Position numbers and translations under genes: made by a program. Below, piece by piece: positions 9,274 to 62,710 of a stretch of DNA of 64,000 nucleotides. The notes beneath the pieces were generated by a model. The model ran no database searches. It was given only the letters and a program-made list of their open reading frames with translations, and was not told where the DNA came from. Positions within the stretch are counted from its first letter, which is position 1. The number at the start of each line of letters is the position of its first letter. This DNA comes from a virus, in IMG/VR virus record IMGVR_UViG_3300045988_166613, positions 64,001-128,000 of that record; one strand, written 5' to 3'.

Positions 9274-9325
9274 GTTAAAATAAATTAAATAATCACTTGA
9301 AATATATCTTATTCTATAGTATAAT
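9274..9325 (+). promoter_or_regulatory. Class I promoter (AT-rich box + -35 + -10)
   Basis: gttaaaataaattaaataatcac-TTGAAA(9297)-17 bp-TATAAT(9320). Confidence 0.7.
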
Positions 9326-9372
9326 AATAAATGTAGAGAAGATATAAAATACATATTAAAGGAGTGGTCAAG

Positions 9373-10422
9373 ATGACTAAATTAGAAAATATTAAATTAA
9401 ACGAAAGATATACAATAGTGGCAAGTGATAGCAGCATCTTAGGATCTACTATGTGTCAAGTTATTAAATGTACTATAAAAGATATCCAATTAGTACAATA
9501 CGCACAATATAACAACGCTTTACAAATAAGATACAGAGCTTACAGAGGAAGAAAAGACAATATCTTAACAGTATTAAACCATGAATCTATATGTATACTA
9601 AAAGGATTACACGATATAAATAAGAGTATAGAAACACAAATAGATGATATTACATATGATCTTAAAGCAAATGATCCAGCGAACTATTTTGATAATACTG
9701 ATACAGTTTTCTTTAAAGCTGACAATGAAAGTATAATGATAAATACTAATTATGATTTATTAACTGATCTTGTTTGTGATTATGTAACAGATAGAATAGC
9801 AGCTGGTGAATCTAAAGAGGAAATTAAAGACAATAATTATTATAGTTTCTTAAAAGATCTTTTAGTTAAAAATAACTTTTCTTTAAACAATGACTTATAT
9901 GATTATTTAAAGAATGAAGGATATGAAAATTTTGTAAAAGAATTAGATTCTTTAAGATTTAGTGTTATGAACTTAGAAACTGTTAAGGAAATAGTTACTG
10001 ATGAGAATGATAATATAAAACCTGAAGATTTACAAGATCCAGAGAGTCTATATAACTTTATTAAAAATACTTTCTTTGAAGCTTCTAAAAATATAAGAAC
10101 ACATGAAAGTCATAAAGTTTTAAACAAATTTATTAATACATACTTAAAAGAAATATATATTAATTGTATAAAAATAGAACAGTTGGGCTTGAGAGCATTT
10201 AGGTTTATATTTACAGAGTGTAAAACCCTAAAGGATTTTAAAAAGGTTATGAACTTGATAGGTAAAGAATACAACGATAACAAATGTATTATTTCTACTT
10301 ACACTAATATGTTAGACGATTTAAAAGTATTTGAAGAGGACGGAGATATGGAAGAAGTAGAAGAGATTAAACAACAATTACAAACGTGTATTAAACTTAC
10401 AGATAACTTAATACTATATTAA
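9373..10422 (+). CDS. Hypothetical acidic protein (349 aa)
   Basis: AAGGAG RBS then ATG 9373 (track start 9364 is GTG inside the RBS). Confidence 0.6.
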   Translation: MTKLENIKLNERYTIVASDSSILGSTMCQVIKCTIKDIQLVQYAQYNNALQIRYRAYRGRKDNILTVLNHESICILKGLHDINKSIETQIDDITYDLKANDPANYFDNTDTVFFKADNESIMINTNYDLLTDLVCDYVTDRIAAGESKEEIKDNNYYSFLKDLLVKNNFSLNNDLYDYLKNEGYENFVKELDSLRFSVMNLETVKEIVTDENDNIKPEDLQDPESLYNFIKNTFFEASKNIRTHESHKVLNKFINTYLKEIYINCIKIEQLGLRAFRFIFTECKTLKDFKKVMNLIGKEYNDNKCIISTYTNMLDDLKVFEEDGDMEEVEEIKQQLQTCIKLTDNLILY

Positions 10423-10426
10423 AAAT

Positions 10427-10478
10427 GTTTAAATAAATTAAATAAATGGTTGATTTATTAAACTGTTCATGTTATAAT
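10427..10478 (+). promoter_or_regulatory. Class I promoter
   Basis: gtttaaataaattaaataaatgg-TTGATT(10450)-17 bp-TATAAT(10473). Confidence 0.7.
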
Positions 10479-10488
10479 AATAAATGTA

Positions 10489-10531
10489 AGGAGGAGGTAT
10501 GAAAGATCATCCTCCTAAATACATAAATTAA
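10489..10531 (+). promoter_or_regulatory. Leader hairpin sequestering an SD, plus a 10-codon mini-ORF (MKDHPPKYIN)
   Basis: AGGAGGA (10489-10495) pairs with TCCTCCT (10510-10516), which are the Pro-Pro codons. ATG at 10499. Stop 10529-10531 overlaps the next RBS. Confidence 0.35.
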
Positions 10532-10543
10532 GGAGTGTTAGAA

Positions 10544-10699
10544 ATGTTAAAAGAGAATTTAATTGATGAAATTGTTGAGGAGTTATTAAAAATATTAGAG
10601 GAATATGATCCAATTGGAGATGCTATGGAAGAGGTTTTAAGAATCTTAAATGATCATTCTTTAAAAAATTATTGTTTAGCAACAGAAAACAATTTATAA
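10544..10699 (+). CDS. Hypothetical 51-aa acidic protein (below the ORF-track cutoff)
   Basis: AAGGAG RBS then ATG 10544; MLKENLIDEIVEELLKILEEYDPIGDAMEEV.. Confidence 0.5.
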   Translation: MLKENLIDEIVEELLKILEEYDPIGDAMEEVLRILNDHSLKNYCLATENNL

Positions 10700-10801
10700 A
10701 ATATAAAATATAATTTATATGACTTGCATGTTTTAGCATTTACTTTTAGTAATAAGTAAAGGGGATTAAAACCTTATAAATTATAAAGATATAATATCTA
10801 T

Positions 10802-10853
10802 GTTTAAATAAATTAAATAAATGATTGATTTATAGTTTAGAATCTGTTATAAT
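10802..10853 (+). promoter_or_regulatory. Class I promoter
   Basis: gtttaaataaattaaataaatga-TTGATT(10825)-17 bp-TATAAT(10848); 5' hairpin gaggg/ccctc at 10866-10880. Confidence 0.7.
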
Positions 10854-10905
10854 TAATATTGTCAAGAGGGGTTTACCCTCCAAATAATAAAAAGGAGTGT
10901 TGAAA

Positions 10906-11190
10906 ATGTTAAAAGAAAAGATCAGAGCGTGTTTACTAGATGACATAAAGGTAGAAGGTTTAAAATTTAAAAAGGAAGAAACTATAGAGAAGTTTGTTAA
11001 TTACATAATTGAAAATTACATTGAAGATAATGACGATCTTGATTGTGTAGGTTTATATGTAGAAGACTTTATGGAATGCGAATTTCAAGAGTACCATAAT
11101 TTTAATAAAGATGAATTTGAGGAAACTGAATTCTTTAATATGAGTGATTCTGAATTGCATTATTTAAATACCTTTAAAGCATATATTTAA
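10906..11190 (+). CDS. Hypothetical small, strongly acidic protein (94 aa)
   Basis: AAGGAG RBS, ATG 10906; D/E-rich (..IEDNDDLDCVGLYVEDFMECEFQEYHNFNKDEFEETEFF..). Confidence 0.6.
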   Translation: MLKEKIRACLLDDIKVEGLKFKKEETIEKFVNYIIENYIEDNDDLDCVGLYVEDFMECEFQEYHNFNKDEFEETEFFNMSDSELHYLNTFKAYI

Positions 11191-11191
11191 A

Positions 11192-11216
11192 GTTGATATA
11201 AATTAAATAATTAAAG
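11192..11216 (+). promoter_or_regulatory. AT-rich box, class II (no -35/-10)
   Basis: gttgatataaattaaataattaaag. Confidence 0.5.
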
Positions 11217-13461: not shown

Positions 13462-13485
13462 GTTTAAATAAATTAAAGAATTAAT
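13462..13485 (+). promoter_or_regulatory. AT-rich box, class II
   Basis: gtttaaataaattaaagaattaat. Confidence 0.5.
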
Positions 13486-14017: not shown

Positions 14018-14041
14018 GTTTAAATAAATTAAAGAATTAAT
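14018..14041 (+). promoter_or_regulatory. AT-rich box, class II
   Basis: gtttaaataaattaaagaattaat, followed by hairpin aggtgg/ccacct at 14057-14075. Confidence 0.5.
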
Positions 14042-14187
14042 CTATAATAAGCTTTTAGGTGGTATTTTGCCACCTTTTAGGCGTTTATATAAATATCAAG
14101 TGCAATAATATTAGGAGGTGATTACATTGCAGCAATAAACTTATAAGAGTAAATAAAGATATATTAGAAAGGAATGATTAAGTAATT

Positions 14188-15414: not shown

Positions 15415-15858
15415 TTTATAACCTATTTTTTTAAAAAAGTTATAATAAATTAAATATACATAAAGAATATAGGGTATTTCTATTTCTATACTCAAAAAAT
15501 AATTAAACAAAAAAGATGTTAAAAGTTATAAAATTTAAAAAGAATGGCTCTATTACTAGGGTTCAGAGGTTGTCCCTTAAAGAAAAGATATAAATAAGTA
15601 ATATATAATATATGTAGAATATAAAAGCTTAACAGCGTATTTTCCTTCGGAACGCTTACGCTAAATACTTGTTTTCTTCACAACTAACGTTGTTCAGAAT
15701 TATTTGATTAAATCTGATATTTTATAGGCTTATTATACTTCTATATACTCTTAAAAGCCTTCAGAATCAATTCTAAGCGTTTTATATATATTATAGTATA
15801 TTTACATCTTTATAAATTAAATAGTCTTATAATCGCAAATTAAAGAATCATAAAAATT

Positions 15859-15910
15859 ATTGAAATAAATTAAATAAACACTTGAAATTCATGCTATAAT
15901 AGAGTAATAT
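15859..15910 (+). promoter_or_regulatory. Class I promoter (first of a tandem pair)
   Basis: attgaaataaattaaataaacac-TTGAAA(15882)-17 bp-TAATAT(15905). Confidence 0.55.
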
Positions 15911-15971
15911 AATAAGTGTAGAGGGGATACACCTTCTAAAGATCTTAAATCTTAATTATAAATCAAAAAAA

Positions 15972-16023
15972 CTCAAAATAAATCAAAGAATTGGTTGACA
16001 TTTAGGGATCAAAGGTTTATAAT
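15972..16023 (+). promoter_or_regulatory. Class I promoter (variant box with C)
   Basis: ctcaaaataaatcaaagaattgg-TTGACA(15995)-17 bp-TATAAT(16018). Confidence 0.7.
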
Positions 16024-16341: not shown

Positions 16342-16393
16342 GTTAAAATAAATTAAATAATTATTTGATTTATCATCTTACATATGTTATAAT
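16342..16393 (+). promoter_or_regulatory. Class I promoter
   Basis: gttaaaataaattaaataattat-TTGATT(16365)-17 bp-TATAAT(16388). Confidence 0.7.
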
Positions 16394-16755: not shown

Positions 16756-16779
16756 GTTAAAATAAATTAAATAATTAAT
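16756..16779 (+). promoter_or_regulatory. AT-rich box, class II
   Basis: gttaaaataaattaaataattaat. Confidence 0.5.
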
Positions 16780-16824: not shown

Positions 16825-16998
16825 ATGATTAGTGTAAGAACAGAAAACTTATTAAAAAGAATAGGAGAAAAGTTAAATACAATAACTTTTCAAGAATTAA
16901 AAAGCATAGACGGAATGACTAAAAACTCTTTAAGAGAAATAATTCTTGTATCTGATAGAAAGGATTTAATGAGATCATATTTGTTAAATATTGAGTAG
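16825..16998 (+). CDS. 57-aa helix-hairpin-helix protein resembling the RNA polymerase alpha C-terminal domain
   Basis: TGGAGG RBS. MISVRTENLLKRIGEKLNTITFQELKSIDGMTKNSLREII compared by eye with the alpha-CTD pattern SVRs.NcLKraGi.tv.eL....l..i.nlGkKSl.EI. Confidence 0.35.
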   Translation: MISVRTENLLKRIGEKLNTITFQELKSIDGMTKNSLREIILVSDRKDLMRSYLLNIE

Positions 16999-17090: not shown

Positions 17091-17173
17091 TTAAAATATA
17101 ATTATAATATTATTATACTTGTTTTATATTAACTATGTGGAAAAAAATTATAAGACAAGGAGAGAAAAAAATA

Positions 17174-17845
17174 ATGACTCAAAGAAAAAATTTAATAGGT
17201 CAAAAATTTGGATTGTTAACAGTTTTGGAGAAAAAATCTGAAAAGAAAGCTGGAAGCAATAGGATTTATTATTTATGTCAATGTGAATGTGGTAATAAAA
17301 AATGGATAAGGTCTGATGCTTTAAAAAGTGGTAATGCTAAAAGCTGTGGTTGTAGAGGAGATAGAGATTTAATAGGTAAAAAATTTGGAAAACTTACAGT
17401 TATTAATAAAATTGAAGGTAAGTCTAAACGTAGAAAAAAAGAATATTTGTGTAAATGTGAGTGCGGTAATGAAAAGATAGTTTGTAGAGATGATTTAATA
17501 AGCAGTCATACAAAGTCATGCGGTTGTTTACATAAAGAAAAAAGTGCTATAAATAGTAAAAAAGCTTTTAATTTTTTAAAAGAAAACGATTGGATAGAAG
17601 GAACTTCTATAACACAATTACAAAGAGAAAAACCAATAAGAACTAATACAAGTGGTGCAACAGGGGTTACATTTGAGAATAGAAAAGGTAAATGGAGAGC
17701 TTATTTGGAATTTAAAGGAAAAAGATATAATTTAGGTTCTTTTGAAGATAAAAACGAAGCAATAAACGCCAGGAAGGAAGCTGAAGAAAAAATAATTAAA
17801 CCATTTTTAGAGAGTTTAAAAGAAAATAAGGAAGGAGATGAGTAA
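17174..17845 (+). CDS. AP2-domain DNA-binding protein with two Cys-rich (CxCxCG...CGC) repeats; no nuclease domain seen
   Basis: LIGQKFGLLTV..YLCQCECGNKKWIRSDALKSGNAKSCGC is repeated as LIGKKFGKLTV..YLCKCECGNEKIV..SCGC. C-terminal TSGATGVTFENRKGKWRAYLEFKGKRYNLGSFEDKNEAINARKEAE fits the AP2 pattern. Confidence 0.7.
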   Translation: MTQRKNLIGQKFGLLTVLEKKSEKKAGSNRIYYLCQCECGNKKWIRSDALKSGNAKSCGCRGDRDLIGKKFGKLTVINKIEGKSKRRKKEYLCKCECGNEKIVCRDDLISSHTKSCGCLHKEKSAINSKKAFNFLKENDWIEGTSITQLQREKPIRTNTSGATGVTFENRKGKWRAYLEFKGKRYNLGSFEDKNEAINARKEAEEKIIKPFLESLKENKEGDE

Positions 17846-19167: not shown

Positions 19168-19554
19168 ATGGATAGAAAATTAAATTTTAAAAAAGGCGAT
19201 ATTTGCATAATGGCAATTATACCAATGAGTGATGCCTCAAGAAGAATAGATATGAGCTTAGATAATATTAACGAATGGACTGAATATGTAGAAGTTATAT
19301 CTGTTGGTAGGAAATATATAACAGTTAAAAGATGTAGTAAATTTGAACATAAATTTGATGTAGAAAATGATTATTGTGAAAAAAGCAAGTATTCACCTAA
19401 TTACAAATTATACGAGGGTATTCAAGAAATATACAATGAGAGAGAAGCTGAAAGAATAAATGATTATATTAGAGATAAGATTGGTCAATATGGGAGTGCT
19501 AGATTTAGCTTGGATAAACTAAAAAGGATTAAGGAAATCATAGATGAAGAGTAA
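19168..19554 (+). CDS. Hypothetical protein (128 aa)
   Basis: GGGGGA RBS-like. Confidence 0.55.
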   Translation: MDRKLNFKKGDICIMAIIPMSDASRRIDMSLDNINEWTEYVEVISVGRKYITVKRCSKFEHKFDVENDYCEKSKYSPNYKLYEGIQEIYNEREAERINDYIRDKIGQYGSARFSLDKLKRIKEIIDEE

Positions 19555-19593: not shown

Positions 19594-19818
19594 ATGGATA
19601 AAAATTTAATAATAGAAGATATTGAAAAACAATTAGAGAAGAGATTTTACTTTATAGATTTTAATTTTAGGAATGTTAGATTAGACTTAGAGAAAAAAGA
19701 AATGACATTTACTAAGGATGATAAAAGAGTAATCGTAAAATTTAAGATTATAGATGATGTTGTTGAAATTAAAGAGATTTATAATTTGTTAGATCCAAAA
19801 GAACCATATATATTTTAA
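19594..19818 (+). CDS. Hypothetical protein (74 aa)
   Basis: AAGGAAAG then ATG 19594. Confidence 0.5.
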   Translation: MDKNLIIEDIEKQLEKRFYFIDFNFRNVRLDLEKKEMTFTKDDKRVIVKFKIIDDVVEIKEIYNLLDPKEPYIF

Positions 19819-19848
19819 AAGCTGCCTAAAGGTGGCTTTTATTTTTTT
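19817..19848 (+). terminator. Intrinsic terminator
   Basis: aagctgcc/ggtggctt stem (2 G-U) followed by ttatttttttag. Confidence 0.7.
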
Positions 19849-19895: not shown

Positions 19896-19950
19896 GTTGA
19901 AATAAATTAAATAATTGATTGACTTAGTATATTATTTATGATATTATAAT
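19896..19950 (+). promoter_or_regulatory. Class I promoter
   Basis: gttgaaataaattaaataattga-TTGACT(19919)-17 bp-TATTAT or 20 bp-TATAAT(19945). Confidence 0.65.
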
Positions 19951-20020: not shown

Positions 20021-21949
20021 ATGAACAAGAGAATTGAAAAAATAGTATTAAAAGCTAAAGAAAGTAAGAATAATTTAACTACACCTAGAAGAGATCAAAT
20101 AAAAAAGGCTGTAGAAGAAAAAGCTTTTGATTATATGATATATAAAGGATATGATGAAGTTTATGATATTGAACCAGTTAGAATGGCTGCTGTATTAGAA
20201 AATATAGAAAATTATTGGTTAACAGATGGTACTATGTGGGCAAGTGTTGACGATGATGTTTTAAAAGTTACAATTAAGTATGGTTATAGTTATTTAACTC
20301 TATATGCAGATTTAAAAGAAAATGAAGAACAATCTTTAAATACCGTAGAATCTAAAGAAGTAGAAATTACATACAATAAAGAGAAAAACGGCATAGAAGT
20401 TAAATTTAATACTAAACCAGCTCAAGAAGTAATTAACGATTTAAAAGTTAATGGTTTTAGATGGCATAGAGTTAAAAAAGTATGGTATGCTAAACAAACA
20501 GAAGAGAGAATTAATTATATTAATACTACTTTTAAAATAAATCAAATAAATGATGGAAAAGAGGTAAATAATATTATAGAACTAAATGATTATAGAAACG
20601 AATCTGAAGATATAAAAGATATCGTTATAAATCCAGATGTTGTGGAAGTTAAAGAACAAGATCAATATTTCATAAAATCAGTTAAATTCGCAAACTTAAA
20701 TAAAAGAAATACAATAAAAGAGTATGAAAAAGAAATTGTAAAAGGTGATTATCTTTTTCAAGATGTAAAAATTACAAGAGAGTTATATTTTAATAATATA
20801 GAAGAGTTAGAAAGTTTCAATAATAGTTTAATGTTAGATTTTGATTTTATTAACGGAACTGGTGGAAGTTGCACAGATGACGAAAGAATAAATGATATAA
20901 AAGATTATTGGAATATGAGTGATGAAGAAAGAGACACCGTGGAGTGGTATTTAAAAGGAATAGCAGTATATTTTAATAATGAATTACAATATATTATTGA
21001 TGCTCAAGGTTATTCTTATGCTAGATATGTAGGGTTAGTATGGGAACATACAAAGAATGAGAAAAAAGTTATTGAAGAAGTTGAGGAGGAAAAAATCGAA
21101 ATGGAAATGAATTTTGATGATATTTTAGAAAGTTTTGAAAATGTTGAAATAAAAAATGAAAATAGGTTATGTAGTGAAGATTTAGAAATAATACAAGAGA
21201 AAAAAAACAACCTTGAAAAAATGAAAGAATCTTTTAATACTTATTTAGAGTTTTATAAAAATAATAAATTATTAGGATATGATGGTGAAATTAATAATAT
21301 GATTTATAATTTTAAAAAAGATCAAATTATACCGAATTTTCAATACTTGATAAGTGATGTCTATAATTATTTTAATAAAAAATATAGTTTAAATATTGAA
21401 AAATTAAATACAAAAGAATTAATAAAAAACTATAACAAATTTAAAAGATACAATACTTATGAAAGGGATTTTGAATGGTATATGAATGTCTTTAATATTG
21501 ATATGTTGATTGATGATATTTTTAATAAATTAAATGGTATCAGTTTTAAAGAAATGGAAATTAAGCTGTTAAAAGAAAAAATATTAAATTACAGTTGGGG
21601 TGTAAATGTTAAAGGTAAAAAAGTTAATTTAAAAGAAATATTAAATTTCAATGAGTATCAAATTCAAAGTAATAATAATTATATATTATCAGGATCAGAA
21701 AGAATTGAAAATATATTTAAATTATTAACATATGCGGAATGTAATAATTTTAAAAATGATTGTTTTGTAAATGTAAAAGAATTAATAAAAAATGCAAAAG
21801 AAAATATTACAAATACATATGAATTAGAAGGAGAAAAAATACAGTCGATAAAAATATTTAAAAATGGATCTATACAAATAACATTCAATTCTGGTTTAAA
21901 TGCTTTGGAGTTCGCACAGGAATATTTAAATTATAAAGAAGTAGCTTAA
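20021..21949 (+). CDS. Large hypothetical protein (642 aa), upstream partner of the methyltransferase-helicase
   Basis: AAGGAGG RBS. Contains LKVNGFRWHRVKKVWYAKQTEE-type module. No catalytic motif recognised. Confidence 0.6.
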   Translation: MNKRIEKIVLKAKESKNNLTTPRRDQIKKAVEEKAFDYMIYKGYDEVYDIEPVRMAAVLENIENYWLTDGTMWASVDDDVLKVTIKYGYSYLTLYADLKENEEQSLNTVESKEVEITYNKEKNGIEVKFNTKPAQEVINDLKVNGFRWHRVKKVWYAKQTEERINYINTTFKINQINDGKEVNNIIELNDYRNESEDIKDIVINPDVVEVKEQDQYFIKSVKFANLNKRNTIKEYEKEIVKGDYLFQDVKITRELYFNNIEELESFNNSLMLDFDFINGTGGSCTDDERINDIKDYWNMSDEERDTVEWYLKGIAVYFNNELQYIIDAQGYSYARYVGLVWEHTKNEKKVIEEVEEEKIEMEMNFDDILESFENVEIKNENRLCSEDLEIIQEKKNNLEKMKESFNTYLEFYKNNKLLGYDGEINNMIYNFKKDQIIPNFQYLISDVYNYFNKKYSLNIEKLNTKELIKNYNKFKRYNTYERDFEWYMNVFNIDMLIDDIFNKLNGISFKEMEIKLLKEKILNYSWGVNVKGKKVNLKEILNFNEYQIQSNNNYILSGSERIENIFKLLTYAECNNFKNDCFVNVKELIKNAKENITNTYELEGEKIQSIKIFKNGSIQITFNSGLNALEFAQEYLNYKEVA

Positions 21950-25380: not shown

Positions 25381-25415
25381 ATAGAACCTTATTATGGTGG
25401 TGAGGTTCTATCTTA
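25381..25415 (+). terminator. Hairpin terminator
   Basis: atagaacct / aggttctat 9-bp stem. Confidence 0.6.
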
Positions 25416-25459
25416 AAATAATAAATGTAATTGATTTAAATTATATAAGATGATATAAT
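25411..25459 (+). promoter_or_regulatory. Class I-like promoter with degenerate box
   Basis: tcttaaaataataaatgtaa-TTGATT(25431)-17 bp-TATAAT(25454). Confidence 0.6.
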
Positions 25460-25515
25460 AAAAACATATTAAACGACATAAAAGGACAAAATAAATAAAA
25501 AGGTAGGTGTTACAA

Positions 25516-26871
25516 ATGAATAGTAAAGTTCAAAAATTTGAATCTGATGTATATAAATACATGGGATCTATAGATTTTAATGAAACAAAGAAAATTTATA
25601 GATCCGTAAAAAATGAATTAATAAAGAAAAAATTAGCCCCTTTTGTTTTTAATGAAGTAATGAACGAAGAAAACGGGTTAAATATAAGTGATTTGGAAAC
25701 AAACGAACAAATAGCAATTGCAAAGGGGTTATATAATTATGGCTTAGAACAATTTAAACCAAGTAGCTATTTTAATACAAATGAACTAGGAGCATATGAA
25801 ACTTATGTTAATCTTAAAGAAGATGATAGTATGGTTTTAGTTTTTGACAATGTAGATGAATATAGTGATGATTTTTATTGTTGTACTTACTGGCAACCTC
25901 ACGAACAATATAGGGCTAGAAAAGAAAGGTTAGTAAGATATAATTTTGCTACTCAAAGAGAAGCAACTATAACAAGAACCAACTACGGGGCAATAAGAAA
26001 AGAAATAACATTGAATAGACCAAACGTAGAAGGAATAAAAAAAATGATTAAAGAAGGAGATTATTTTCCTCCTGACGTATTAAGTTTGAATATTTTACTT
26101 TTAGAAGACAAAGTAGCAAACGTAGAATATGATAAAAATAAAAGACAACTGAGAATAAGAATAAATTATGATATAGATGCAGTAGATTATACCGTGGTTG
26201 ACTTTACTGACGGATGGCATAGAGATACTGCTATCTATGAGTTATATAATGAAGGGTATGACGTAGAAAAAAGTTTCAAAGGCTTTCCCGTAAATATTTC
26301 TATTATTACACCAGAGCGAGCAGCAAAATTTGTTGGAAGACAAATGTTAGCAAATGTATCTAGTAAACAATATATAAAAGCTATACAAGATAATAATTAT
26401 AATACTTTTATTAAGAAGGTTAATGCCAGTAAAGGTGTTCTACATGACCAAATAGCAAAAACAAGAAATGAATTTATAGAAATGGGAAAACTAACCCACT
26501 ATGAAGTTTTTGAAAAAGGATTAAGGTATGTAGAAAAAAATGAGAGAATAAAAATTGAAGGTAGAAATATAATGATTTTTGGTGTTGAAAACTATGTGAG
26601 AATTGTAAATACCATATTTGAGATATTAGAAGATAAAAAAGTAGATAGCAAAACAATGGAAATATTTAAAAGTGAAAATATTTGGCTAGGATATTTTGCA
26701 ATATGGAGTTATTTACGAAAAAATAAATTAGATGACCTTGAAGAGTATGAATTAATTAAAAATGTGATTAATAACGCCATAATATTAAAAGATGAAATGA
26801 AAGAATTAAAAGTAAATTATAAAAGCTTTATTATTAGTGATATTTATAATTTCTTTAGAGATTTAATATAA
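25516..26871 (+). CDS. ParB/sulfiredoxin-fold DGQHR-like (DndB-like) protein
   Basis: ..ATQREATITRTNYGAIRKEITLNRPNVEGIKKMIKEGDYFPPDVLSLNI.. then VVDFTDGWHRDTAIYEL, resembling the QR...DGQHR pattern. Confidence 0.4.
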   Translation: MNSKVQKFESDVYKYMGSIDFNETKKIYRSVKNELIKKKLAPFVFNEVMNEENGLNISDLETNEQIAIAKGLYNYGLEQFKPSSYFNTNELGAYETYVNLKEDDSMVLVFDNVDEYSDDFYCCTYWQPHEQYRARKERLVRYNFATQREATITRTNYGAIRKEITLNRPNVEGIKKMIKEGDYFPPDVLSLNILLLEDKVANVEYDKNKRQLRIRINYDIDAVDYTVVDFTDGWHRDTAIYELYNEGYDVEKSFKGFPVNISIITPERAAKFVGRQMLANVSSKQYIKAIQDNNYNTFIKKVNASKGVLHDQIAKTRNEFIEMGKLTHYEVFEKGLRYVEKNERIKIEGRNIMIFGVENYVRIVNTIFEILEDKKVDSKTMEIFKSENIWLGYFAIWSYLRKNKLDDLEEYELIKNVINNAIILKDEMKELKVNYKSFIISDIYNFFRDLI

Positions 26872-27962: not shown

Positions 27963-27996
27963 TGGGAAATAAAATTCCTATCAGTCTTTTTTATTA
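27958..27996 (+). terminator. Intrinsic terminator
   Basis: actgatgggaa / ttcctatcagt 11-bp stem then cttttttatt. Confidence 0.75.
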
Positions 27997-28003: not shown

Positions 28004-28055
28004 GTTGAAATAAATTAAATAATTACTTGATTTATAGTGATATTTGTGTTAATAT
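28004..28055 (+). promoter_or_regulatory. Class I promoter
   Basis: gttgaaataaattaaataattac-TTGATT(28027)-17 bp-TAATAT(28050). Confidence 0.65.
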
Positions 28056-45188: not shown

Positions 45189-45483
45189 TACAAATGAAAT
45201 TAAAGAGCTTAGAGGGGTATTCCCTCATGAGCTTAATAAAAATAAATTAAAGAATTACTTATACTTACACAGTGATGATGTTAAAGAAGGTTTTATAAAT
45301 GAAACTTTAGTTTGGTATAAGAATAATACTTATAATAGAGAGATTTTCAAAGAGGATAAGGTAGAAAGAGAAGATATAATTACTAAAGTTAAACTTAAAG
45401 GAAGAGAGTTTGAAAAAGAGATTATACATAAGATAAAAACTGGAATAATAAAAGATTGGTATCAACTAGCATTAGTTTTATAA
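45172..45483 (+). CDS. Doubtful ORF (no ATG anywhere, GTG start, no RBS); 5' third looks like an intergenic cassette
   Basis: Contains hairpin gaggg/ccctc (45211-45225 region) and a class II box at 45237. Confidence 0.3.
   Translation: MVRIINTNEIKELRGVFPHELNKNKLKNYLYLHSDDVKEGFINETLVWYKNNTYNREIFKEDKVEREDIITKVKLKGREFEKEIIHKIKTGIIKDWYQLALVL
45237..45257 (+). promoter_or_regulatory. AT-rich box, class II
   Basis: taaaaataaattaaagaatta. Confidence 0.4.
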
Positions 45484-45503: not shown

Positions 45504-45532
45504 TTGCAAATAAAACGGAAAATAGGTATAAT
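45504..45532 (+). promoter_or_regulatory. Sigma-A-type promoter without AT-rich box
   Basis: TTGCAA(45504)-17 bp-TATAAT(45527). Confidence 0.65.
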
Positions 45533-45538
45533 CAAATA

Positions 45539-45552
45539 AGAACATATGTTCG
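45539..45552. promoter_or_regulatory. SOS (LexA/Cheo) box
   Basis: AGAACATATGTTCG, 13/14 to the Gram-positive consensus CGAACATATGTTCG, 7 nt downstream of the -10. Confidence 0.7.
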
Positions 45553-45726: not shown

Positions 45727-46551
45727 ATGAAATATGAAAGCAAACCGAAGCCAAACAGTCAAGGATTAAGTATGAAAACATCCAAACCAGCTATGTATTG
45801 CATAGATTCCGTAGCAGAGGGAGCTAATAGAATAGGAGTTTCCATAGGAGAAAATTTCAATTGTACTAAAGCTTCAATAATTAGAGATATGATTGAGGCA
45901 GCGATAATATCTAATGCTAATATATTAACCATAGAAGATAGAACTTTTTCTATAAGAGAACTTATAGAGATTGAAAACCCAGATATGAACAATATAACAA
46001 ACATTATGGATATTGTATTGGATAGTAAAAAGGATTATATAGAAATAAAAGAAAATTTCAAAAATTTTATATTAAAAACAACTTATGAAATTTTTTATGA
46101 GATGAAAGAAGATATAAAAGATGAATTGGAACTAAATAAAGAAGACATTGAAAATTATGATTCAATTATTAATGATTTTAATTTCATAATTGAATCTTAT
46201 AGAAGCACTAGAGAGAAAAGAGAATTTGAGGAGATCTATTTAAAAGACTTCACGGAATCTGTAGACGAGGTCATTTGTAGAATTGATGATTTAGAAGATT
46301 TTGTGTCTGAAAATGATTTGCTTTGTGATGATTTTGAAAAAAGATTTAAAGACAAGATTAAATCCTTACCAAGATATAATCAAATTAAACCATTATATTT
46401 TTATGATAAATTTAGATATAAAAACATAACTACACAACTAAAATATACTGTAAAGTTGTGGTACAGATACTTACATTTTTATTCTGTTGGAAGAAATGAA
46501 GAACTTACTTATGGTGATTTTGAAGAACAAATATTTAATTTTATAAAATAA
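45727..46551 (+). CDS. Hypothetical protein (274 aa), possible N-terminal ribbon-helix-helix; candidate SOS-controlled gene
   Basis: GAGGAGGAG RBS; ..IGVSIGENFNCTKASIIRDMIEAAI.. is RHH-like by eye. Confidence 0.55.
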   Translation: MKYESKPKPNSQGLSMKTSKPAMYCIDSVAEGANRIGVSIGENFNCTKASIIRDMIEAAIISNANILTIEDRTFSIRELIEIENPDMNNITNIMDIVLDSKKDYIEIKENFKNFILKTTYEIFYEMKEDIKDELELNKEDIENYDSIINDFNFIIESYRSTREKREFEEIYLKDFTESVDEVICRIDDLEDFVSENDLLCDDFEKRFKDKIKSLPRYNQIKPLYFYDKFRYKNITTQLKYTVKLWYRYLHFYSVGRNEELTYGDFEEQIFNFIK

Positions 46552-46560
46552 TTATTATAA

Positions 46561-46585
46561 AAGGGAGTATCTCTTTTACTCCCTT
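46561..46585 (+). terminator. Hairpin terminator
   Basis: aagggagta / tactccctt. Confidence 0.55.
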
Positions 46586-46613
46586 AATTATAAAGTGGGA
46601 GAGGGAGATACAT

Positions 46614-46916
46614 ATGACAAACTTAAATTTTAAAATTTACGATGAGATATTTATAGATCCAGAGGAATTCTTTAGTAAGACTAAAAATAAAGAACTTAAT
46701 TTAGAAAGATTTATCTATGATAATGAATCTGTTTATCTAAAACAAAGCATGAACGGATATGATTTTAGATGTTTATTAAGTGGAATTATGGAAGATGTTG
46801 AAGCTGAGAAAGAATACATAGTAATAGCTAAAGTGAATGATGGAATTATGATAAGACATAAGGTTAGAGATGAGTTTGAGGATGAGTTTATTAATGAGTG
46901 GTTCTTAAAGTGTTAA
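46614..46916 (+). CDS. Hypothetical protein (100 aa)
   Basis: GGGAGAGGGAG RBS. Confidence 0.55.
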   Translation: MTNLNFKIYDEIFIDPEEFFSKTKNKELNLERFIYDNESVYLKQSMNGYDFRCLLSGIMEDVEAEKEYIVIAKVNDGIMIRHKVRDEFEDEFINEWFLKC

Positions 46917-46985: not shown

Positions 46986-47010
46986 TAAATAAATAGTAAT
47001 CTTATAATAA

Positions 47011-47298
47011 ATGAAAGAAGTGATAATACATATGGTAAAATTAAATGAAAAATCAAGAAAAGAATTATGGGAAGATATGAACAATATTGAGTTCAGAATA
47101 AACAGTTTAAAGAGTATTTTTCAAAATGAAATACCAATAGAAAAACAAATGTTGAATGATTTTATAAGTGAAAAAGAAGATATAATAGATAGATTAAAAG
47201 AGATAGAATATAAATTTAAAACACAAATTAAAGCTGAAGAATTATATCAAAAGATAATTAAAGATTTAAAAATTGGAAAAGAAGTGGTTAGAAGATAA
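47011..47298 (+). CDS. Hypothetical coiled-coil protein (95 aa; start may be ATG 47032)
   Basis: ORF in the gene train. Confidence 0.45.
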   Translation: MKEVIIHMVKLNEKSRKELWEDMNNIEFRINSLKSIFQNEIPIEKQMLNDFISEKEDIIDRLKEIEYKFKTQIKAEELYQKIIKDLKIGKEVVRR

Positions 47299-47700: not shown

Positions 47701-47724
47701 TTTTAAATAAATCAAATAATTAAT
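47701..47724 (+). promoter_or_regulatory. AT-rich box, class II variant
   Basis: ttttaaataaatcaaataattaat. Confidence 0.45.
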
Positions 47725-48186: not shown

Positions 48187-48429
48187 ATGAATAGAGTATA
48201 TACAGGGATAAAAGATTGTAATGGAAAACCAATATATAGTGATGATAAAGTTAAATATACATATTTAAGATGTGGCAAAGTCAGTTTTGAAAATATTTGT
48301 AGTGTTGAATGGGGATATGATGATGTAGAACAAAAAGAAGGATGGATGATTGGAGGAGATTTATTAAGTACAATAGGTGAATATGACACAAAGAAAAGTA
48401 AAGAGATAGTAGAAGTTATAATAAATTAA
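48187..48429 (+). CDS. YopX-like small phage protein
   Basis: YTGIKDCNGKPIYSDDKV.. resembles the YopX N-terminal pattern. Confidence 0.35.
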   Translation: MNRVYTGIKDCNGKPIYSDDKVKYTYLRCGKVSFENICSVEWGYDDVEQKEGWMIGGDLLSTIGEYDTKKSKEIVEVIIN

Positions 48430-48459
48430 AGGATTAATTAAAAAGATAGGAGAAATAAA

Positions 48460-50150: not shown

Positions 50151-52043
50151 ATGGTAGAAATGAAACAGCAATATGATGAATCAAATATAGAGATATTAGA
50201 AGGATTAGATCCGGTAAGAAAAAGACCAGGAATGTATATAGGTTCTACTGATACTAGAGGTTTACATCATTGTGTTTATGAAATTGTTGATAATAGTATT
50301 GATGAGGCTTTAACAGGGAATTGTAGTTTAATATATGTATCAATTAATGAAGATAATTCAATAACAGTTAAAGATAATGGGAGAGGAATTCCATGTGGTA
50401 TCCATCCTAAAAAGAATAAATCAACATTAGAAGTAATACTTACGGTTCTACATGCTGGAGGTAAATTTAATGGTAAAGGATATAAGGTATCTGGTGGTTT
50501 ACATGGTGTAGGTTCTTCAGTAGTTAATGCTTTATCTAAACACATGATAGCAACAGTACATAGAGACGGGAATATATATAGACAAGAATATAAATGTGGT
50601 AAACCTATAACAAGCGTTGATATTATAGGTAATTGTGAAGATACAGGAACAGAAATTACTTTTTTACCTGATGATACAATATTTGAAACTACTATTTTTA
50701 ACTATAATACTTTAATGAATAGATTTAGAGAAAGTGCATTTTTAAATAAATCTATATCTATAACATTAGAAGATAAAAGAAAGGGTAGAGAACAATTAAA
50801 GGAATTCCATTTTGAAGGTGGTTTAAAAGAATTTATAGAATATGTGGATAGTGATAAAGAAGTTCTTCATGATGTAATATACATAGAAAAATTTAATAAT
50901 AAGAATAATTTCGGTATAGAATGTGCTTTTCAATATATTAATGATTATGTTAAATCTATATATACCTACGCTAATAACATTAATACAATTGAAGGTGGTA
51001 CACATTTAAGTGGTTTTAAAGAGGGATTTTTAAAAGCAATTAACACTATTGGTAAGGATATGGAGTTAATCAAAAAAGATTTTATAACAAGTGACATGGA
51101 AGAGGGATTGTCATTAGTTGTATCTGTAAAATTACAAGAACCCCAATTTGAAGGACAAACTAAAACCAAGTTAGGAAGTAGTTTTGCTAGAAGCTTAACT
51201 TCCGAAATGGTATCGGATTATTTAGAAATATTCTTCAAAGAGAATGAAGAAACAACAAGGGTTATAGTAGAGAAATTATTACAAACTCAAAAATTTAGAG
51301 AGAATATGAAGAAAAATAAGGATTTAGAAAAGAAAAAACAATCTTTAAATAGAAATAAATTACCAGGTAAACTTGCTGATTGTTCATCAAAAGATCCAAA
51401 GAAATGTGAAATACATATAGTTGAAGGTGATTCTGCTGGTGGTTCTGCAAAACAAGGAAGGGATAGAAAATTCCAAGCTATATTATCTTCAAAGGGTAAA
51501 ATAATAAACTGTGAAAAAACAACATTAAATAGATTATTAGATTCAGAAGAAATTAAAGCATTTATTGCAGCAATAGGTACTGGAATAGGAGAAGATTTTG
51601 ATATTAGTAAATTAAGATATGAAAGAATACATTTACTACAAGATGCAGACAGTGACGGGGTGGGGCATATAAGAGTTTTATGGCTAACGTTTATATATAG
51701 ACATATGAGAGAGTTAATAGAGCAAGGGCATGTTTATTTTGATGTTCCTCCTTTATACAAGAATGTAATAGGAAAAGAAATACACTATACTTATTCAGAA
51801 AATGAACAATTAAAGTTTTTAGATGAACATAAAAAAGTAGGGAATATTCAACGTTTTAAAGGGCTTGGAGAAATGAGTGCCGACCAATTATGGGAAACAA
51901 CTCTAAATCCTGATACAAGAATATTACAACAGGTAACAATAGAAGATGCAATAGAATGTGATAAAATGATAAGTTTATTAATGGGACAAGAAGTAAAACC
52001 TAGAAAAGATTTTATTAAAAAGTTCTTACAGGAGGAAAAATAA
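50151..52043 (+). CDS. Type IIA DNA topoisomerase subunit B (GyrB/ParE-like)
   Basis: GHKL ATPase N-terminus ([24 protein letters not shown]), Toprim [26 protein letters not shown]. Confidence 0.9.
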
Positions 52044-54729: not shown

Positions 54730-54753
54730 GTTGAAATAAATTAAAGAATTAAT
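54730..54753 (+). promoter_or_regulatory. AT-rich box, class II
   Basis: gttgaaataaattaaagaattaat, followed by hairpin atggtggtc/gactaccat. Confidence 0.5.
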
Positions 54754-54805
54754 TAAAATGGTGGTCGAATTAACGTTTGACTACCATTAAGAAAGGATGA
54801 TTTGA

Positions 54806-55254: not shown

Positions 55255-55770
55255 ATGGCTAAAAGTAGTACAGCTAATAGAGGTTTAAAATTTGAAGAGG
55301 AAATACAAAAGAGATGCGATTATTTGAGAAAAGAGGGTATAGCTTTAATTTCTAAAGTTCCTACGGATTGGAAAGTATTGAGGAAATATAGTCCAGCAAA
55401 GAAGAGAACTGAGATATATTCAGCATTTCCGACATCTACCTCACGCTTTATAGACTTTGTAGGGATTTTCAAGGGAAAAGCTATAGGTATAGAAGCTAAG
55501 GAAACTTTAAACAAGACAAGCTTTCCATTCAATAATATCAAAGATACACAAATAGAGTTTTTAAAAGAGTGGGTAGAATTAGGTGGTTTAGGATATTATA
55601 TGGTTAGATTTAAAACAAATGAGAAGGTGTTTTTAGTTCCTAGTAAAGTTATGCACGAATGTATGGACACTATAGGTAGGAAATCTGCTCCTTACCAATG
55701 GTTTATAGATAATGCAGAAATACAAGAGGTAGATTACAAACTATTAGACTTTGAAAAAAAGTTAAAATAA
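55255..55770 (+). CDS. recU: RecU-type Holliday junction resolvase
   Basis: ..NRGLKFEEEI.., IDFVGIFKGKAIGIEAKET..FPFNNIKDTQIEFL matches the RecU catalytic core pattern. Confidence 0.75.
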   Translation: MAKSSTANRGLKFEEEIQKRCDYLRKEGIALISKVPTDWKVLRKYSPAKKRTEIYSAFPTSTSRFIDFVGIFKGKAIGIEAKETLNKTSFPFNNIKDTQIEFLKEWVELGGLGYYMVRFKTNEKVFLVPSKVMHECMDTIGRKSAPYQWFIDNAEIQEVDYKLLDFEKKLK

Positions 55771-55812
55771 ATTAAAGTTTTAGTTGACATGATATAAATA
55801 TGGTACTATAAT
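55761..55812 (+). promoter_or_regulatory. Class I promoter (box overlaps the recU stop)
   Basis: gttaaaataaattaaagttttag-TTGACA(55784)-17 bp-TATAAT(55807). Confidence 0.75.
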
Positions 55813-55829: not shown

Positions 55830-55853
55830 GTTAAAATAAATTAAAGAATTAAT
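55830..55853 (+). promoter_or_regulatory. AT-rich box, class II, 18 nt downstream of the preceding -10
   Basis: gttaaaataaattaaagaattaat. Confidence 0.5.
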
Positions 55854-56917: not shown

Positions 56918-56937
56918 AACTTAACATTTAACCAAAT

Positions 56938-56960
56938 TTAAAATAAATTAAAGAATTAAA
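56938..56960 (+). promoter_or_regulatory. AT-rich box, class II
   Basis: tttaaaataaattaaagaattaa. Confidence 0.5.
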
Positions 56961-60817: not shown

Positions 60818-60842
60818 ATTTTAAATAAATTAAATAATTGAT
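60818..60842 (+). promoter_or_regulatory. AT-rich box, class II
   Basis: attttaaataaattaaataattgat. Confidence 0.45.
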
Positions 60843-60864
60843 GAATACAAAGGAGAGATGAAAG

Positions 60865-61437
60865 ATGAAAATAGAAGATTTAAAAGTAGGAACAAAATTA
60901 CAGGTTATTAAGAATTATAAAGGAAACGGGATTATGCTCAGACAAGGAGAAGTTATAAAAATTAAGAAGGTTTTAGAGGGTGAAACTTATTCTGTTTCAA
61001 CTCCATATTATTATTCACCTATAGTTGTACCTAAAGAAGCTTTATTAGAATGTTGTGTGAGAATTGGATTTATAAAATGTGATGATGGATGGCGTGAAGA
61101 AATTTATGGAGCTATTTTTAATAAAGAAGCACGTAACAATGTCATTGGAAAAACTGTACCATTATCAGACAGACTATGTACAGACCAAGTACATGCTAAC
61201 AGCATATCATCTAAGAAAACCATTAATAGATCGAAATACAAAATTGAAATAAGCATTACTTTTGATGGTAAGAAATATACTATTGGTGATTTTGTAAGGG
61301 TTAAAGTCAATGAAGCTAATTATTATGGTAAAATTAAAGAAATTAATACTACAACTATACAATTAGCTAAATTATCTTCAAAGGGTAAATATACTATAGA
61401 ATTAGATGGAATAGCTGAAATGGAGAATATAGGCTAG
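60865..61437 (+). CDS. Hypothetical protein (190 aa)
   Basis: AAGGAGAG RBS. Confidence 0.55.
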   Translation: MKIEDLKVGTKLQVIKNYKGNGIMLRQGEVIKIKKVLEGETYSVSTPYYYSPIVVPKEALLECCVRIGFIKCDDGWREEIYGAIFNKEARNNVIGKTVPLSDRLCTDQVHANSISSKKTINRSKYKIEISITFDGKKYTIGDFVRVKVNEANYYGKIKEINTTTIQLAKLSSKGKYTIELDGIAEMENIG

Positions 61438-61485
61438 TTTGAGGACTATTATACCAAGGATAAATAATTCATTTACAAAAAAAAT

Positions 61486-61537
61486 GTTAAAATAAATTAA
61501 ATAATTGATTGACAAGTTAAACTAAAAGTAATATAAT
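61486..61537 (+). promoter_or_regulatory. Class I promoter
   Basis: gttaaaataaattaaataattga-TTGACA(61509)-17 bp-TATAAT(61532). Confidence 0.75.
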
Positions 61538-61629
61538 TAATATTGTCGAAGGACATAAGATAAAAACCTTAAAAAAGAAAGGTGTGGTTATCTTGATTGT
61601 ATGAGAGATAATTTAAAACAAAAACTTAT

Positions 61630-61654
61630 CTTAAAATAAATTAAAGAATTAAAC
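61630..61654 (+). promoter_or_regulatory. AT-rich box, class II (part of a 33-nt leader duplicated at 62681)
   Basis: cttaaaataaattaaagaattaaac. Confidence 0.5.
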
Positions 61655-61689
61655 AAAGAAATAAAAGATTAAAAGGAGCGATTTTTATT

Positions 61690-62637
61690 ATGGAAAACAG
61701 AACAGCAATGAACAAGGTAGAATTAGTAGGAGTAGTTAAAGAACATCAATTAAAAGAAGGTAAAAGTGATAATGGAAAATACATAAATGGATCATTAGTA
61801 GTAGCTTGTGGAGAAGCTGAAGTAAAATTAAAAGTTTATGTTGGTGAAAAAACAAAAGAAGGAAAAGTAAAAAAATCTTATGAAACATTAAATAAATTTA
61901 TAAAAGAAGAATACCTAACAATGGCTAAAGATAAAGATGAAGCAGCAGTAATAAGAGTATATGGATCAGGAGATTTCACACCACAATTTAGAGAGGAGCT
62001 ATTTGTTCCAGAGAACGGAAAAGAGTGTAAATCAGTTATCTCAGTAGACTTAGGTTTTGGAAATATTTATGTTGATGAAAACAACAAAATAAAAGAAGAA
62101 GATTATAAAGCAACATTTGATATAGAAATGTATGTTCAAGAAATAGAAGAAGAAGTTAAGAAAAATGGTGATGATGAAGAAGAAACAGGAAGAGTTAAGA
62201 TTAAAGGATGTGTACCTTGCTATGGAGGTAAAGCTTTCCCAATAACTTTAATAGCTGGTACAGTGGTAGATGAAGAAGGTGAGTTCGATTTTGCAGAACA
62301 AATCAGAGAAAATGTTAGCGAAGGAGATTCAATGAATTTCTGGGGAGATATAAATTACATAAGCATATTAGAAAAGAAAAAGAAGGGTGGTTCATTAGGT
62401 AGAGCCAAAGTCGAAGAAAAAAGAACTACAATACATGAGCTTGTTGCTACAGGTGGGGAAGTCTTAGATGATGAAAAAGAATGGGAAGAAGAAGCAATAG
62501 AAAAAGCATTAAAAGAAAGAGCAATAGATATAAAAGAAAAAGAGGACAAGGCTAAACAAGAAAGTTCAAAAGGAACAGGATTAAGAGGTGGAAAAGATAA
62601 AGCAGAAAAGACTGAAAGAAGAAGACCTAAATTCTAA
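61690..62637 (+). CDS. Putative single-stranded DNA-binding protein (non-canonical)
   Basis: N-terminus MNKVELVGVVKEHQLKEG.. is OB-fold-like wording. Position next to a Sak4-like ATPase. Charged C-terminal third. Weak call. Confidence 0.3.
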   Translation: MENRTAMNKVELVGVVKEHQLKEGKSDNGKYINGSLVVACGEAEVKLKVYVGEKTKEGKVKKSYETLNKFIKEEYLTMAKDKDEAAVIRVYGSGDFTPQFREELFVPENGKECKSVISVDLGFGNIYVDENNKIKEEDYKATFDIEMYVQEIEEEVKKNGDDEEETGRVKIKGCVPCYGGKAFPITLIAGTVVDEEGEFDFAEQIRENVSEGDSMNFWGDINYISILEKKKKGGSLGRAKVEEKRTTIHELVATGGEVLDDEKEWEEEAIEKALKERAIDIKEKEDKAKQESSKGTGLRGGKDKAEKTERRRPKF

Positions 62638-62654
62638 TAAATACATAAAATAGT

Positions 62655-62685
62655 ATAAGGAAGGTTTTAATATCTCCTTCCTTAT
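62655..62685 (+). terminator. 10-bp perfect hairpin between the SSB-like and Sak4-like genes
   Basis: ataaggaagg / ccttccttat; 3' arm runs into the class II box. Confidence 0.5.
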
Positions 62686-62710
62686 CTTAAAATAAATTAA
62701 AGAATTAAAC
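62686..62710 (+). promoter_or_regulatory. AT-rich box, class II
   Basis: cttaaaataaattaaagaattaaac. Confidence 0.5.

Follow-up and report, generated by a model that had tools for sequence, protein, structure and literature searches.

The 64,000-nt stretch of viral DNA considered here (positions 64,001 to 128,000 of the IMG/VR record IMGVR_UViG_3300045988_166613; "the window" denotes this whole stretch and all coordinates refer to it) has a GC content of about 25% and carries, from 9.3 kb onward, one long train of genes on the + strand. The train is punctuated by about 30 copies of a box of ~24 nt, and this box is most likely the repeated operator of a prophage master repressor that is encoded within the same train, at 26892-27962: a clostridial counterpart of the SPBRE and Phi3TRE elements of the Bacillus phages SPbeta and phi3T.

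Gene content of the element

Region 1-9200, which precedes the train, encodes a RepA-like initiator, a MerR regulator, a TubZ-like tubulin and an IS200/IS605 pair. The train itself encodes gyrase A and B, an NAD-dependent ligase, FolD, thymidine kinase, methyltransferases, an SNF2-methylase, RecU and a Sak4-like protein of the AAA_24 type. In tblastn, the Sak4-like protein is best matched by yorG of SPbeta-like Bacillus phages (42% identity), and the gene that precedes it is yorF-like (E 4e-22); these two genes follow the boxes at 61486, 61630 and 62686. Intrinsic terminators are very rare in the train: two are found between 9 and 29 kb, and the further + strand terminator-like match, between 49 and 64 kb, is intragenic (51201-51217). 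Megablast of 21 kb against phage and plasmid collections returned no near-identical record; the element is not a described genome.

An oriented box in two contexts

Searching the whole window for GTTRAAATAAATTAAAKAATTRAT with up to three mismatches yields 27 matches, all on the + strand (27/27), compared to 0.09 (sd 0.29) expected from dinucleotide-preserving shuffles, none of which reached 27. A weight matrix built from these 27 matches finds 30 sites on the + strand and none on the - strand at a threshold of at least 14 bits, and 38 and 1, respectively, at a threshold of at least 8 bits. The boxes are confined to 9274-62709, and no + strand site of at least 8 bits is present in 1-9200. The first-pass annotation, made from the sequence alone, had described about 30 co-oriented copies and a maintenance module devoid of them, and both statements are borne out. 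All but one of its box coordinates were recovered within 2 nt, some of them slightly shifted (28233 instead of 28232, 33771 instead of 33773, and 45236, 56937 and 60819); the copy that it placed at 25411 scores below 8 bits and can be called a remnant by sequence reading only. Sites at 48415 (strong, 24.4 bits), 34917, 47001 and 15439 and an intragenic site at 20531 are added to its list. In a repeat search, the box is the sole dispersed repeat family of the window, and the entire 75-nt class I promoter (see below) is also repeated as a unit (families D1 and D2).

The box is non-palindromic, AT-rich, rich in A-tracts and strictly oriented. Its copies fall into two classes with a common core of about TTRAAATAAATTAAAK; positions 17-23 are variable in class I and better conserved in class II. 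The sequence holds TAA in all three frames (at box positions 3, 8 and 13, and again at 21; e.g., 55830-55853), which would end any upstream open reading frame (ORF) and explains why stop codons of upstream genes overlap boxes, as the annotation had noted at 35692, 43574 and 55770 and as is seen at all three positions. The box would work as a junction that combines a stop, an operator and a Shine-Dalgarno (SD) sequence.

Class I comprises 13 copies and the remnant near 25412. The layout proposed at first reading holds: box and -35 hexamer (TTGACA, TTGATT or TTGAAA) share one nucleotide, the T that closes the former and opens the latter, and the hexamer is followed, after 16-17 nt, by TATAAT or TAATAT. 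All five perfect (12/12) sigma-70-type promoters on the + strand between 9 and 64 kb are linked to a box. Four of these have TTGACA-17-TATAAT (hexamers separated by the spacer length in nt): 15972-16023 (20.8 bits for the box), 28233-28284 (31.3 bits), which lies upstream of a PemK/MazF-like gene, 55761-55812 (22.8 bits), where box and stop codon of the RecU-like gene overlap, and 61486-61537 (30.1 bits), at the entry to the yorF/yorG-like replication module; the fifth is TTGACA-16-TATAAT at 43560-43610 (30.5 bits), and its box also overlaps a stop codon, that of a gene with its end at 43574. The first box of the array, 9274-9297 (26.9 bits), runs into an 11/12 promoter, TTGAAA-17-TATAAT (9274-9325). 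Three copies are followed by TTGATT-17-TGnTATAAT, at 10427-10478 (24.8 bits), 10802-10853 (26.3 bits) and 16342-16393 (25.9 bits), and the remaining ones by TTGACT-17-TATTAT (19896-19947, 30.5 bits), TTGACA-17-TATACT (35465-35516, 22.9 bits) and, as read from the sequence, TTGAAA-17-TAATAT (15859-15910, 19.9 bits) and TTGATT-17-TAATAT (28004-28055, 29.1 bits). The box at 19896 is immediately preceded by an intrinsic terminator (19816-19841, + strand). In class I the box thus occupies positions of about -59 to -37, an A/T-rich tract where an upstream promoter (UP) element would lie.

Two features were noted at 10485-10525, 10860-10900, 15916-15956, 14042-14090 and 54754-54800, the last two of which lie behind class II boxes. 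Class I promoters share a conserved, AATAAATGTAGAGA-like start region, and several predicted transcripts begin with short GC-rich hairpins (z -2.5 to -5.9), one of which sequesters an SD and ATG; these hairpins may be 5' stabilizers.

Class II comprises 18 copies, which end in AATTAAT or AATTAAA and run into no -35 hexamer, in keeping with the initial description; the absence of a -10, also part of that description, holds except at 14018 and 54730, where a usable -10 follows the box. In 11 of the 18, the box ends 11-25 nt before a start codon, and several lie within 2-6 nt of an SD. The closest are 39393-39416 (25.2 bits) and 56937-56960 (24.9 bits), which abut the SD and end 2-3 nt before it. 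The copy at 13462-13485 (30.0 bits) lies 12 nt before the start codon of a Dam-like gene, and those at 48415-48438 (24.4 bits), 61630-61653 (25.6 bits) and 62686-62709 (25.6 bits) precede the thymidine kinase gene, the yorF-like gene and the yorG (Sak4)-like gene, respectively. The boxes at 35683-35706 (28.8 bits) and 34917-34940 (weak, 12.2 bits) overlap the stop codon of the upstream gene; other copies are at 11192-11215 (23.6 bits), 16756-16779 (29.7 bits), 33771-33794 (weak, 8.8 bits), 47701-47724 (23.3 bits) and 60819-60842 (25.5 bits), and a class II-like copy at 45236-45259 (21.3 bits) is in the 5' part of an ORF call, 45172-45483, whose true start is uncertain. The three tandems of a class I and a class II box that had been reported, 43560/43641, 55761/55830 and 61486/61630, are all present: the second box follows the -10 of the first by 31 nt (43641-43664, weak, 12.0 bits), 18 nt (55830-55853, 31.0 bits) and 93 nt. 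Overall, the promoter-less copies are conserved at least as well as class I, and better in the 3' half.

The boxes at 14018-14041 (30.0 bits) and 54730-54753 (31.4 bits) may themselves contribute a -35 and spacer, forming possible promoters TTTAAA-18-TATAAT and TTGAAA-17-TAAAAT, each followed by a strong hairpin (z -3.7 and -5.9, respectively). None of the other class II copies has a usable -10, which rules out class II as a set of host sigma-A promoters, and the consensus sequences of sigma-H, -E, -K, -D and TcdR-type factors, compared by eye, give no consistent match.

A contiguous stretch of ~24 conserved nucleotides, strictly co-oriented and placed directly upstream of genes, is also what a promoter for a phage-specific sigma factor or RNA polymerase (RNAP) would look like, in which case class I would represent tandem host and phage promoters. 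SPbeta-type phages encode such a polymerase, YonO (yonO is annotated in the SPbeta genome), yet YonO serves late genes while the boxes stand in a region of early and replication genes. No sigma or RNAP domain was found among 60 window proteins scanned with Pfam, the boxes at 39393 and 56937 leave no room for a start site and a leader ahead of the SD, and genes behind class II boxes need no promoter of their own, given the very few terminators. This possibility, raised at first reading, is accordingly unsupported as a primary explanation and, for class II as well, very improbable; we regard it as the least credible of those considered here.

The probable repressor gene and its operon

The gene at 26892-27962 (+ strand), our proposed source of the box reader, encodes a 356-aa protein which sequence profiles and a predicted structure place in the MrpR/YopR/SroF family of integrase-fold repressors. 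The protein matches the Pfam domain MrpR_N_CB (E 2.8e-9; 37.9 bits against a curated cut-off of 27) and PHROG 5830 (E 8e-24); in a sequence search of the PDB, its sole matches, which are weak, are YopR/MrpR. A profile of the protein and seven database homologues, all of which (7/7) contain PF22822 and PF22823, aligns to SPbeta YopR with 94% probability in hhalign (E 1e-7). The AlphaFold2 model has a mean predicted local distance difference test (pLDDT) score of 85, and Foldseek retrieves with it, as the best match, the phi3T SroF-DNA structure (9rd5, 1.7e-12), followed by YopR/MrpR (8bj6/8a0a, 7e-12) and including the SroF-Sar complex; the top seven matches are all SroF, YopR or MrpR (1e-12 to 2e-8), whereas genuine tyrosine recombinases score 3e-5 or worse. 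At ~19% identity to SroF and MrpR, the window protein is too distant for residue-level calls, e.g., of catalytic residues or DNA-contact helices.

Directly upstream lies a yopQ (sroE)-like gene (25507-26871, + strand; BLASTP against SPbeta YopQ, E 4e-12; PHROG 5732, E 3e-34). The pair is present in all relatives found, and the order yopQ-like gene, repressor gene, terminator is that of SPbeta; of an sro-type operon, only these last two genes are recognizable in the window. The operon is preceded by a degenerate box remnant and a TTGATT-17-TATAAT promoter (25412-25459, + strand; the core is rearranged and scores <8 bits) and closed by an intrinsic terminator with a 13-bp stem and a T run (27956-27987, + strand), just before the box at 28004. 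Because the box of this promoter is degenerate while its sigma-A hexamers are kept, the repressor operon could stay expressed in the lysogen.

Two genes past the repressor gene, behind a class I promoter, a PemK/MazF-like endoribonuclease gene (28345-28971) encodes a 208-aa protein with a C-terminal extension. The gene order from the yopQ-like gene through the repressor gene to this gene is kept in all relatives found, among them the contigs L027, L028, L097 and L098. SPbeta-family phages interact with the host MazEF, which makes a phage-borne MazF worthy of note here.

The first-pass annotation had put forward five DNA binders of the window as candidate readers. The product of 26892-27962 was not among them, and one of the five genes (17135-17845, in the early region) is of the HNH/AP2 type and homing-endonuclease-like (PHROG 374, E 1e-50). 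Behind the box at 16756, a 57-aa protein (16825-16998) has a weak Pfam match, below cut-off, to the C-terminal domain of the RNAP alpha subunit (alpha-CTD; E 0.0095), which would matter only if the box had an UP-element role as well.

Operators of SPbeta and phi3T

MrpR (YopR) is the master repressor of SPbeta, a monomer with a tyrosine-recombinase fold but no recombinase function (PMC10516654). Chromatin affinity purification sequencing (ChAP-seq) places MrpR on SPBRE at ten promoter regions, and SPBRE DNA is shifted by MrpR in electrophoretic mobility shift assays (PMC10516654). MrpR represses the promoters PaimR and PyosX about 5-fold (Kohm et al., 2023, PMC10516654). Its phi3T orthologue SroF, also a monomer, nearly encircles a 26-bp box, CAGTAATTTTATTTTTATTCTTAATG (bioRxiv 10.1101/2025.11.27.690993; PDB 9rd5), and reads 24 bp of it, two consecutive A-tracts among them (10.1101/2025.11.27.690993). 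SroF is released by the SOS-controlled antirepressor Sar, and phages carry specific SroF-Sar pairs (10.1101/2025.11.27.690993).

In our scan of the SPbeta genome, 11 copies of SPBRE (consensus CAAATACAAAWAATATGTATA) are found, all in the early region at 64-130 kb and each oriented like the gene downstream, with none in the late or left-arm regions. SPBRE lies just upstream of the -35 at aimR and in the first yonX copy, inside a TAGACA-17-TATAAT promoter at yorE, yorM, yorZ, yosX and yonP, and directly before an SD, without a promoter, at yopM, yopV and in the second yonX copy, so that the yonX pair forms a tandem. A scan of 50 kb of phi3T with the published box, allowing up to six mismatches, yields 17 matches against 0.08 expected, all co-oriented with transcription. 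Boxes at 58066, 68771, 70527, 76028 and 90120 are 0-1 nt from a -35, those pressed against an SD include 59975, 82232, 87231 and 90559, and 58066/58155 is a tandem of the class I and class II type. Two classes, tandems and strict orientation are thus family traits of SroF/MrpR operators.

The window shares with phi3T the repressor fold (the best Foldseek match), a long, asymmetric, AT-rich site with consecutive A-tracts, and many co-oriented early-region copies located at a -35 or an SD, with tandems and a site entering the yorE-yorG module. This last correspondence is specific: phi3T sites precede the yorE and yorF homologues, their window counterparts are the boxes at 61486 and 61630, and the position of the 61486 site is common to the SPbeta yorE SPBRE and the phi3T box at 90120. 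With SPbeta, the window shares a master repressor with a dispersed, repeated operator, a yopQ-yopR pair followed by a terminator, and operators upstream of a -35 (aimR, yonX), before an SD (yopM, yopV) and in tandem (yonX). The systems also differ: half of the SPbeta copies are inside a TAGACA-17-TATAAT promoter, whereas most promoter-linked copies of the window are upstream of the -35, and the window element looks like a TubZ/RepA plasmid-prophage with a clostridial host while phi3T is an integrated prophage.

The SPbeta data also bear on the suggestion, made at first reading, that the box is an RNA-level signal. Class II boxes are strictly co-oriented, SD-adjacent and transcribed within long operons, and the window encodes proteins that might act on them in a 5' untranslated region, the MazF/PemK-like endoribonuclease and a phage ProQ-C-like RNA-binding protein (19168-19554, early region); they could accordingly be processing sites, translation enhancers or binding sites for such proteins. 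Yet the SD-adjacent SPBREs of yopM and yopV are bound by MrpR on DNA in ChAP-seq. In the window, class I copies are upstream of their own transcription start sites, two of them follow terminators, an Rfam search of the window found no known RNA family, and the box sequence has no potential to form a structure; a single element served by a single reader is also the simpler account. As a primary explanation of class II, an RNA signal is therefore unsupported and highly improbable.

Occurrence elsewhere and lineage variants

A search of 596 Gb of bacterial and archaeal genomes returned the exact 23-nt box pattern only 14 times, in each case as an unrelated singleton. In JGI metagenomes, exact boxes are likewise almost only singletons, with clustering confined to known relatives: a few contigs from IMG/VR, related to the window in a mosaic manner (75-97% identity), which carry co-oriented boxes of both classes. 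These counts speak against the box being a host-genome feature, and the situation that the first-pass annotation had named as fatal to its view, a similar density on both strands of unrelated AT-rich DNA, was looked for and not found. One unrelated metagenome contig of 21% GC (L084, Ga0209717_1000893, positions 1-160) has four exact boxes within ~155 nt, three of them 31 nt apart and the fourth 70 nt on, an arrangement that resembles a tandem repeat rather than a dispersed operator.

Where the repressor is 91% identical, contigs retain the box of the window. L028, L027, L026 and L097 encode repressors with 58%, 48%, 43% and 40% identity to that of the window; in these contigs this box is absent and repeated variants of their own are present, AAAATAAAATAAAWTA, AAATAAATTTAAAATAT, AATTAATTAAATAAA and AATAAATTTAAAMAAAT. 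The variants were found by repeat-family and promoter-anchored searches, since de novo k-mer counts are swamped by low-complexity A-rich words. Each variant is on the transcribed strand, with some copies abutting TTGACA and others ahead of an SD. Class I and class II thus change together within a lineage, which argues for one lineage-specific reader rather than the host alpha-CTD.

The latter is the reader in an alternative which takes the box to be merely an unusually conserved UP element within a duplicated early-promoter cassette and class II to be decayed promoters. The location of class I boxes and their A-tracts fit this proposal, as do the presence of a box at all of the best sigma-70-type promoters and the repetition of the 75-nt promoter as a whole unit. 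UP elements, however, are degenerate, are read by the host alpha-CTD and are found only with promoters, whereas the box is near-identical over ~24 nt, its G/T positions exceed what the alpha-CTD needs, its type is lineage-specific and common to both classes, and its 18 promoter-less copies are conserved as well as class I or better in the 3' half. The pattern is also absent from host-type genomes, and the homologous SPbeta and phi3T elements are repressor sites. We therefore consider an UP element alone very unlikely; a secondary UP-element role of the class I copies is possible. The annotation had favored a dedicated reader over a plain UP element and had listed, among other options, a global repressor with the box as its operator, which would silence the phage program in the plasmid-prophage state; both views gain from the MrpR/SroF homologue encoded in the window and from the co-oriented, two-class anatomy of the SPbeta and phi3T operators.

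The box was also considered as a recombination or mosaic boundary, similar to the promoter early stem-loop (PeSL) of T4-type phages. This was rejected: 12 of 49 homology breakpoints against relatives lie within 40 nt of a box, compared to 33% for random intergenic positions, which leaves no enrichment over the intergenic expectation. Boxes and their flanks were compared in orthologous gaps, where the relatives are too close for discrimination.

Proposed mechanism of silencing

The properties of the box, which is long, non-palindromic, AT-rich and strictly oriented, are those expected from the repressor family, because its members clamp a long, asymmetric, A-tract-rich site as a monomer. During the plasmid-prophage state, about 30 sites spread over the 55-kb train of early and replication genes would be bound by the repressor. 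In class I, the operator core, at about -57 to -42, abuts the -35 of the strongest sigma-A promoters, and a clamp at this site would close the promoter, probably by denying the alpha-CTD its UP contact or sigma region 4 its access. An SPBRE in a class I-like position, at PaimR, is repressed by MrpR (PMC10516654). Class II, a promoter-less operator between an upstream stop codon and the next SD, would most likely be an extra occupancy site that blocks read-through transcription or stabilizes repression at flanking promoters, as in the tandems. Since terminators are very rare in the train, genes behind class II boxes need no promoters of their own and control of read-through would matter. At 14018 and 54730, the box itself may serve as the -35 and spacer of a promoter, a role that SPBRE plays in SPbeta, and the promoter with the degenerate box would keep up expression of the repressor operon in the lysogen.

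A variant of this scheme, which is possible but doubtful, shifts the weight from initiation to elongation. Class II boxes would be polar roadblocks, each holding a monomeric clamp that nearly encircles the DNA, in a single orientation and between almost every few genes; class I would be the site of competition with the alpha-CTD at an operator that doubles as an UP element. Silencing would then be due to elongation blocks and UP occlusion instead of promoter occlusion, and the box would be a portable gene-cassette junction.

Several observations weigh against the assignment of the box to the product of 26892-27962. The link between protein and box is drawn from homology and architecture. Neither SPBRE nor Phi3TRE resembles the box significantly in sequence: when the box and Phi3TRE are aligned by eye on the -35, 11 of 23 positions match, and only an AAAA-T-AAA-TTA-like core is common. 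Such divergence is not unexpected, because the repressors are only ~19% identical. The sites are 3-5 times denser than in SPbeta (~33 in 55 kb as compared to 11 in 66 kb). A DNA-bound repressor does not need its promoter-less sites to point all one way, and their strict co-orientation is unexplained. Among relatives, the motif differs between lineages, but the mapping of box type to repressor identity is not strictly one-to-one: the L097 box resembles the L027 type though the proteins are 40% identical (the L097 protein, P0007, is 40% identical to all others). Two partners of the Bacillus repressors are also missing from the picture. No AimR-type match that would indicate an arbitrium module (aimR-aimP-aimX) was found among the window proteins scanned, and this module could lie outside the window or be absent; no homologue of phi3T Sar was found in the window by BLASTP. 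The new box sequence, the denser sites and the lack of a recognized arbitrium module set the window apart from the Bacillus cases.

The imperfect match between box type and repressor, together with the presence of several DNA-binder candidates in the window, leaves room for a different reader, an activator or timing factor such as the HTH_3 (helix-turn-helix) protein encoded at 36869-37177, whose operator the box could possibly be. Against this, elements of the same architecture are bound by MrpR and SroF in SPbeta and phi3T (PMC10516654; 10.1101/2025.11.27.690993), the box is the sole dispersed repeat available to the MrpR homologue as a multi-site operator, and a small dimeric HTH protein would be a poorer fit to a long, asymmetric site than a monomeric clamp. 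We consider such a reader unlikely, and the MrpR-family repressor remains by far our preferred choice.

Oriented operators scattered over a plasmid-prophage have a precedent in C1 of phage P1, a monomeric repressor with dispersed, asymmetric 17-bp operators. As in the window, these non-palindromic sites control many separate promoters, although C1 belongs to an unrelated protein family and its operator is shorter.

A candidate SOS entry point

A promoter without a box, TTGCAA-17-TATAAT, is directly followed by a perfect Firmicute LexA (Cheo) box, GAACATATGTTC, at 45540-45551 (45504-45551 in all, + strand), and is a candidate for the SOS entry point of the switch. Downstream, at 45727-46916 (+ strand), are genes for two acidic proteins, of 274 aa (isoelectric point (pI) 4.8; 45727-46551) and 100 aa (pI 4.6; 46614-46916), with no Pfam or PHROG match. 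Both were included in the BLASTP comparison that found no Sar homologue; by position, they are weak candidates for SOS-controlled antirepressors.

Other features of the window

Three further box-like sites lie on the + strand. A site of 21.8 bits (20531-20554) is located within ORF 20021-21949, which encodes 642 aa while homologues in relatives have about 835 aa; this suggests either an internal operator or a rearranged ORF. Weak sites are found just past the gene ending at 15414 (15439-15462, 11.4 bits) and before the gene at 47011 (47001-47024, 16.0 bits).

In the maintenance region, a 45-nt inverted repeat (3387-3431 and 3488-3532, 78% complementary) with TAAAGTAAAG-type words in it lies upstream of a small ORF (3755-4090) and the TubZ-like gene (4108-5250), and may be a partition site or a TubR operator. 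The IS200/IS605 pair (6142-8072, - strand), composed of a Y1 transposase, TnpA, and an OrfB/TnpB-like protein of 507 aa, separates this module from the gene train. The 3' end of ORF 29675-31405 (31225-31397) is duplicated at 149-321 with 80% identity, and four 198-nt tandem units in the same ORF (29774-30464) encode repeated DUF4379 zinc-ribbon modules.

Implications

Descriptions of an integrase-fold SroF/MrpR repressor with dispersed operators have until now been confined to Bacillus SPbeta-like arbitrium phages. If our assignment is true, the same switch runs a clostridial TubZ-type phage-plasmid, with a new operator sequence and a much denser array. Oriented, promoter-less operators beside ribosome-binding sites are an unexplained trait common to the window, SPbeta and phi3T. 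Natural operator variants paired with diverged repressors would be useful for working out the recognition code of the monomeric clamp and, if the assignment holds, the repressor gene, the operator consensus and the candidate SOS entry would together provide a handle to induce or cure phage-plasmids in Clostridium.

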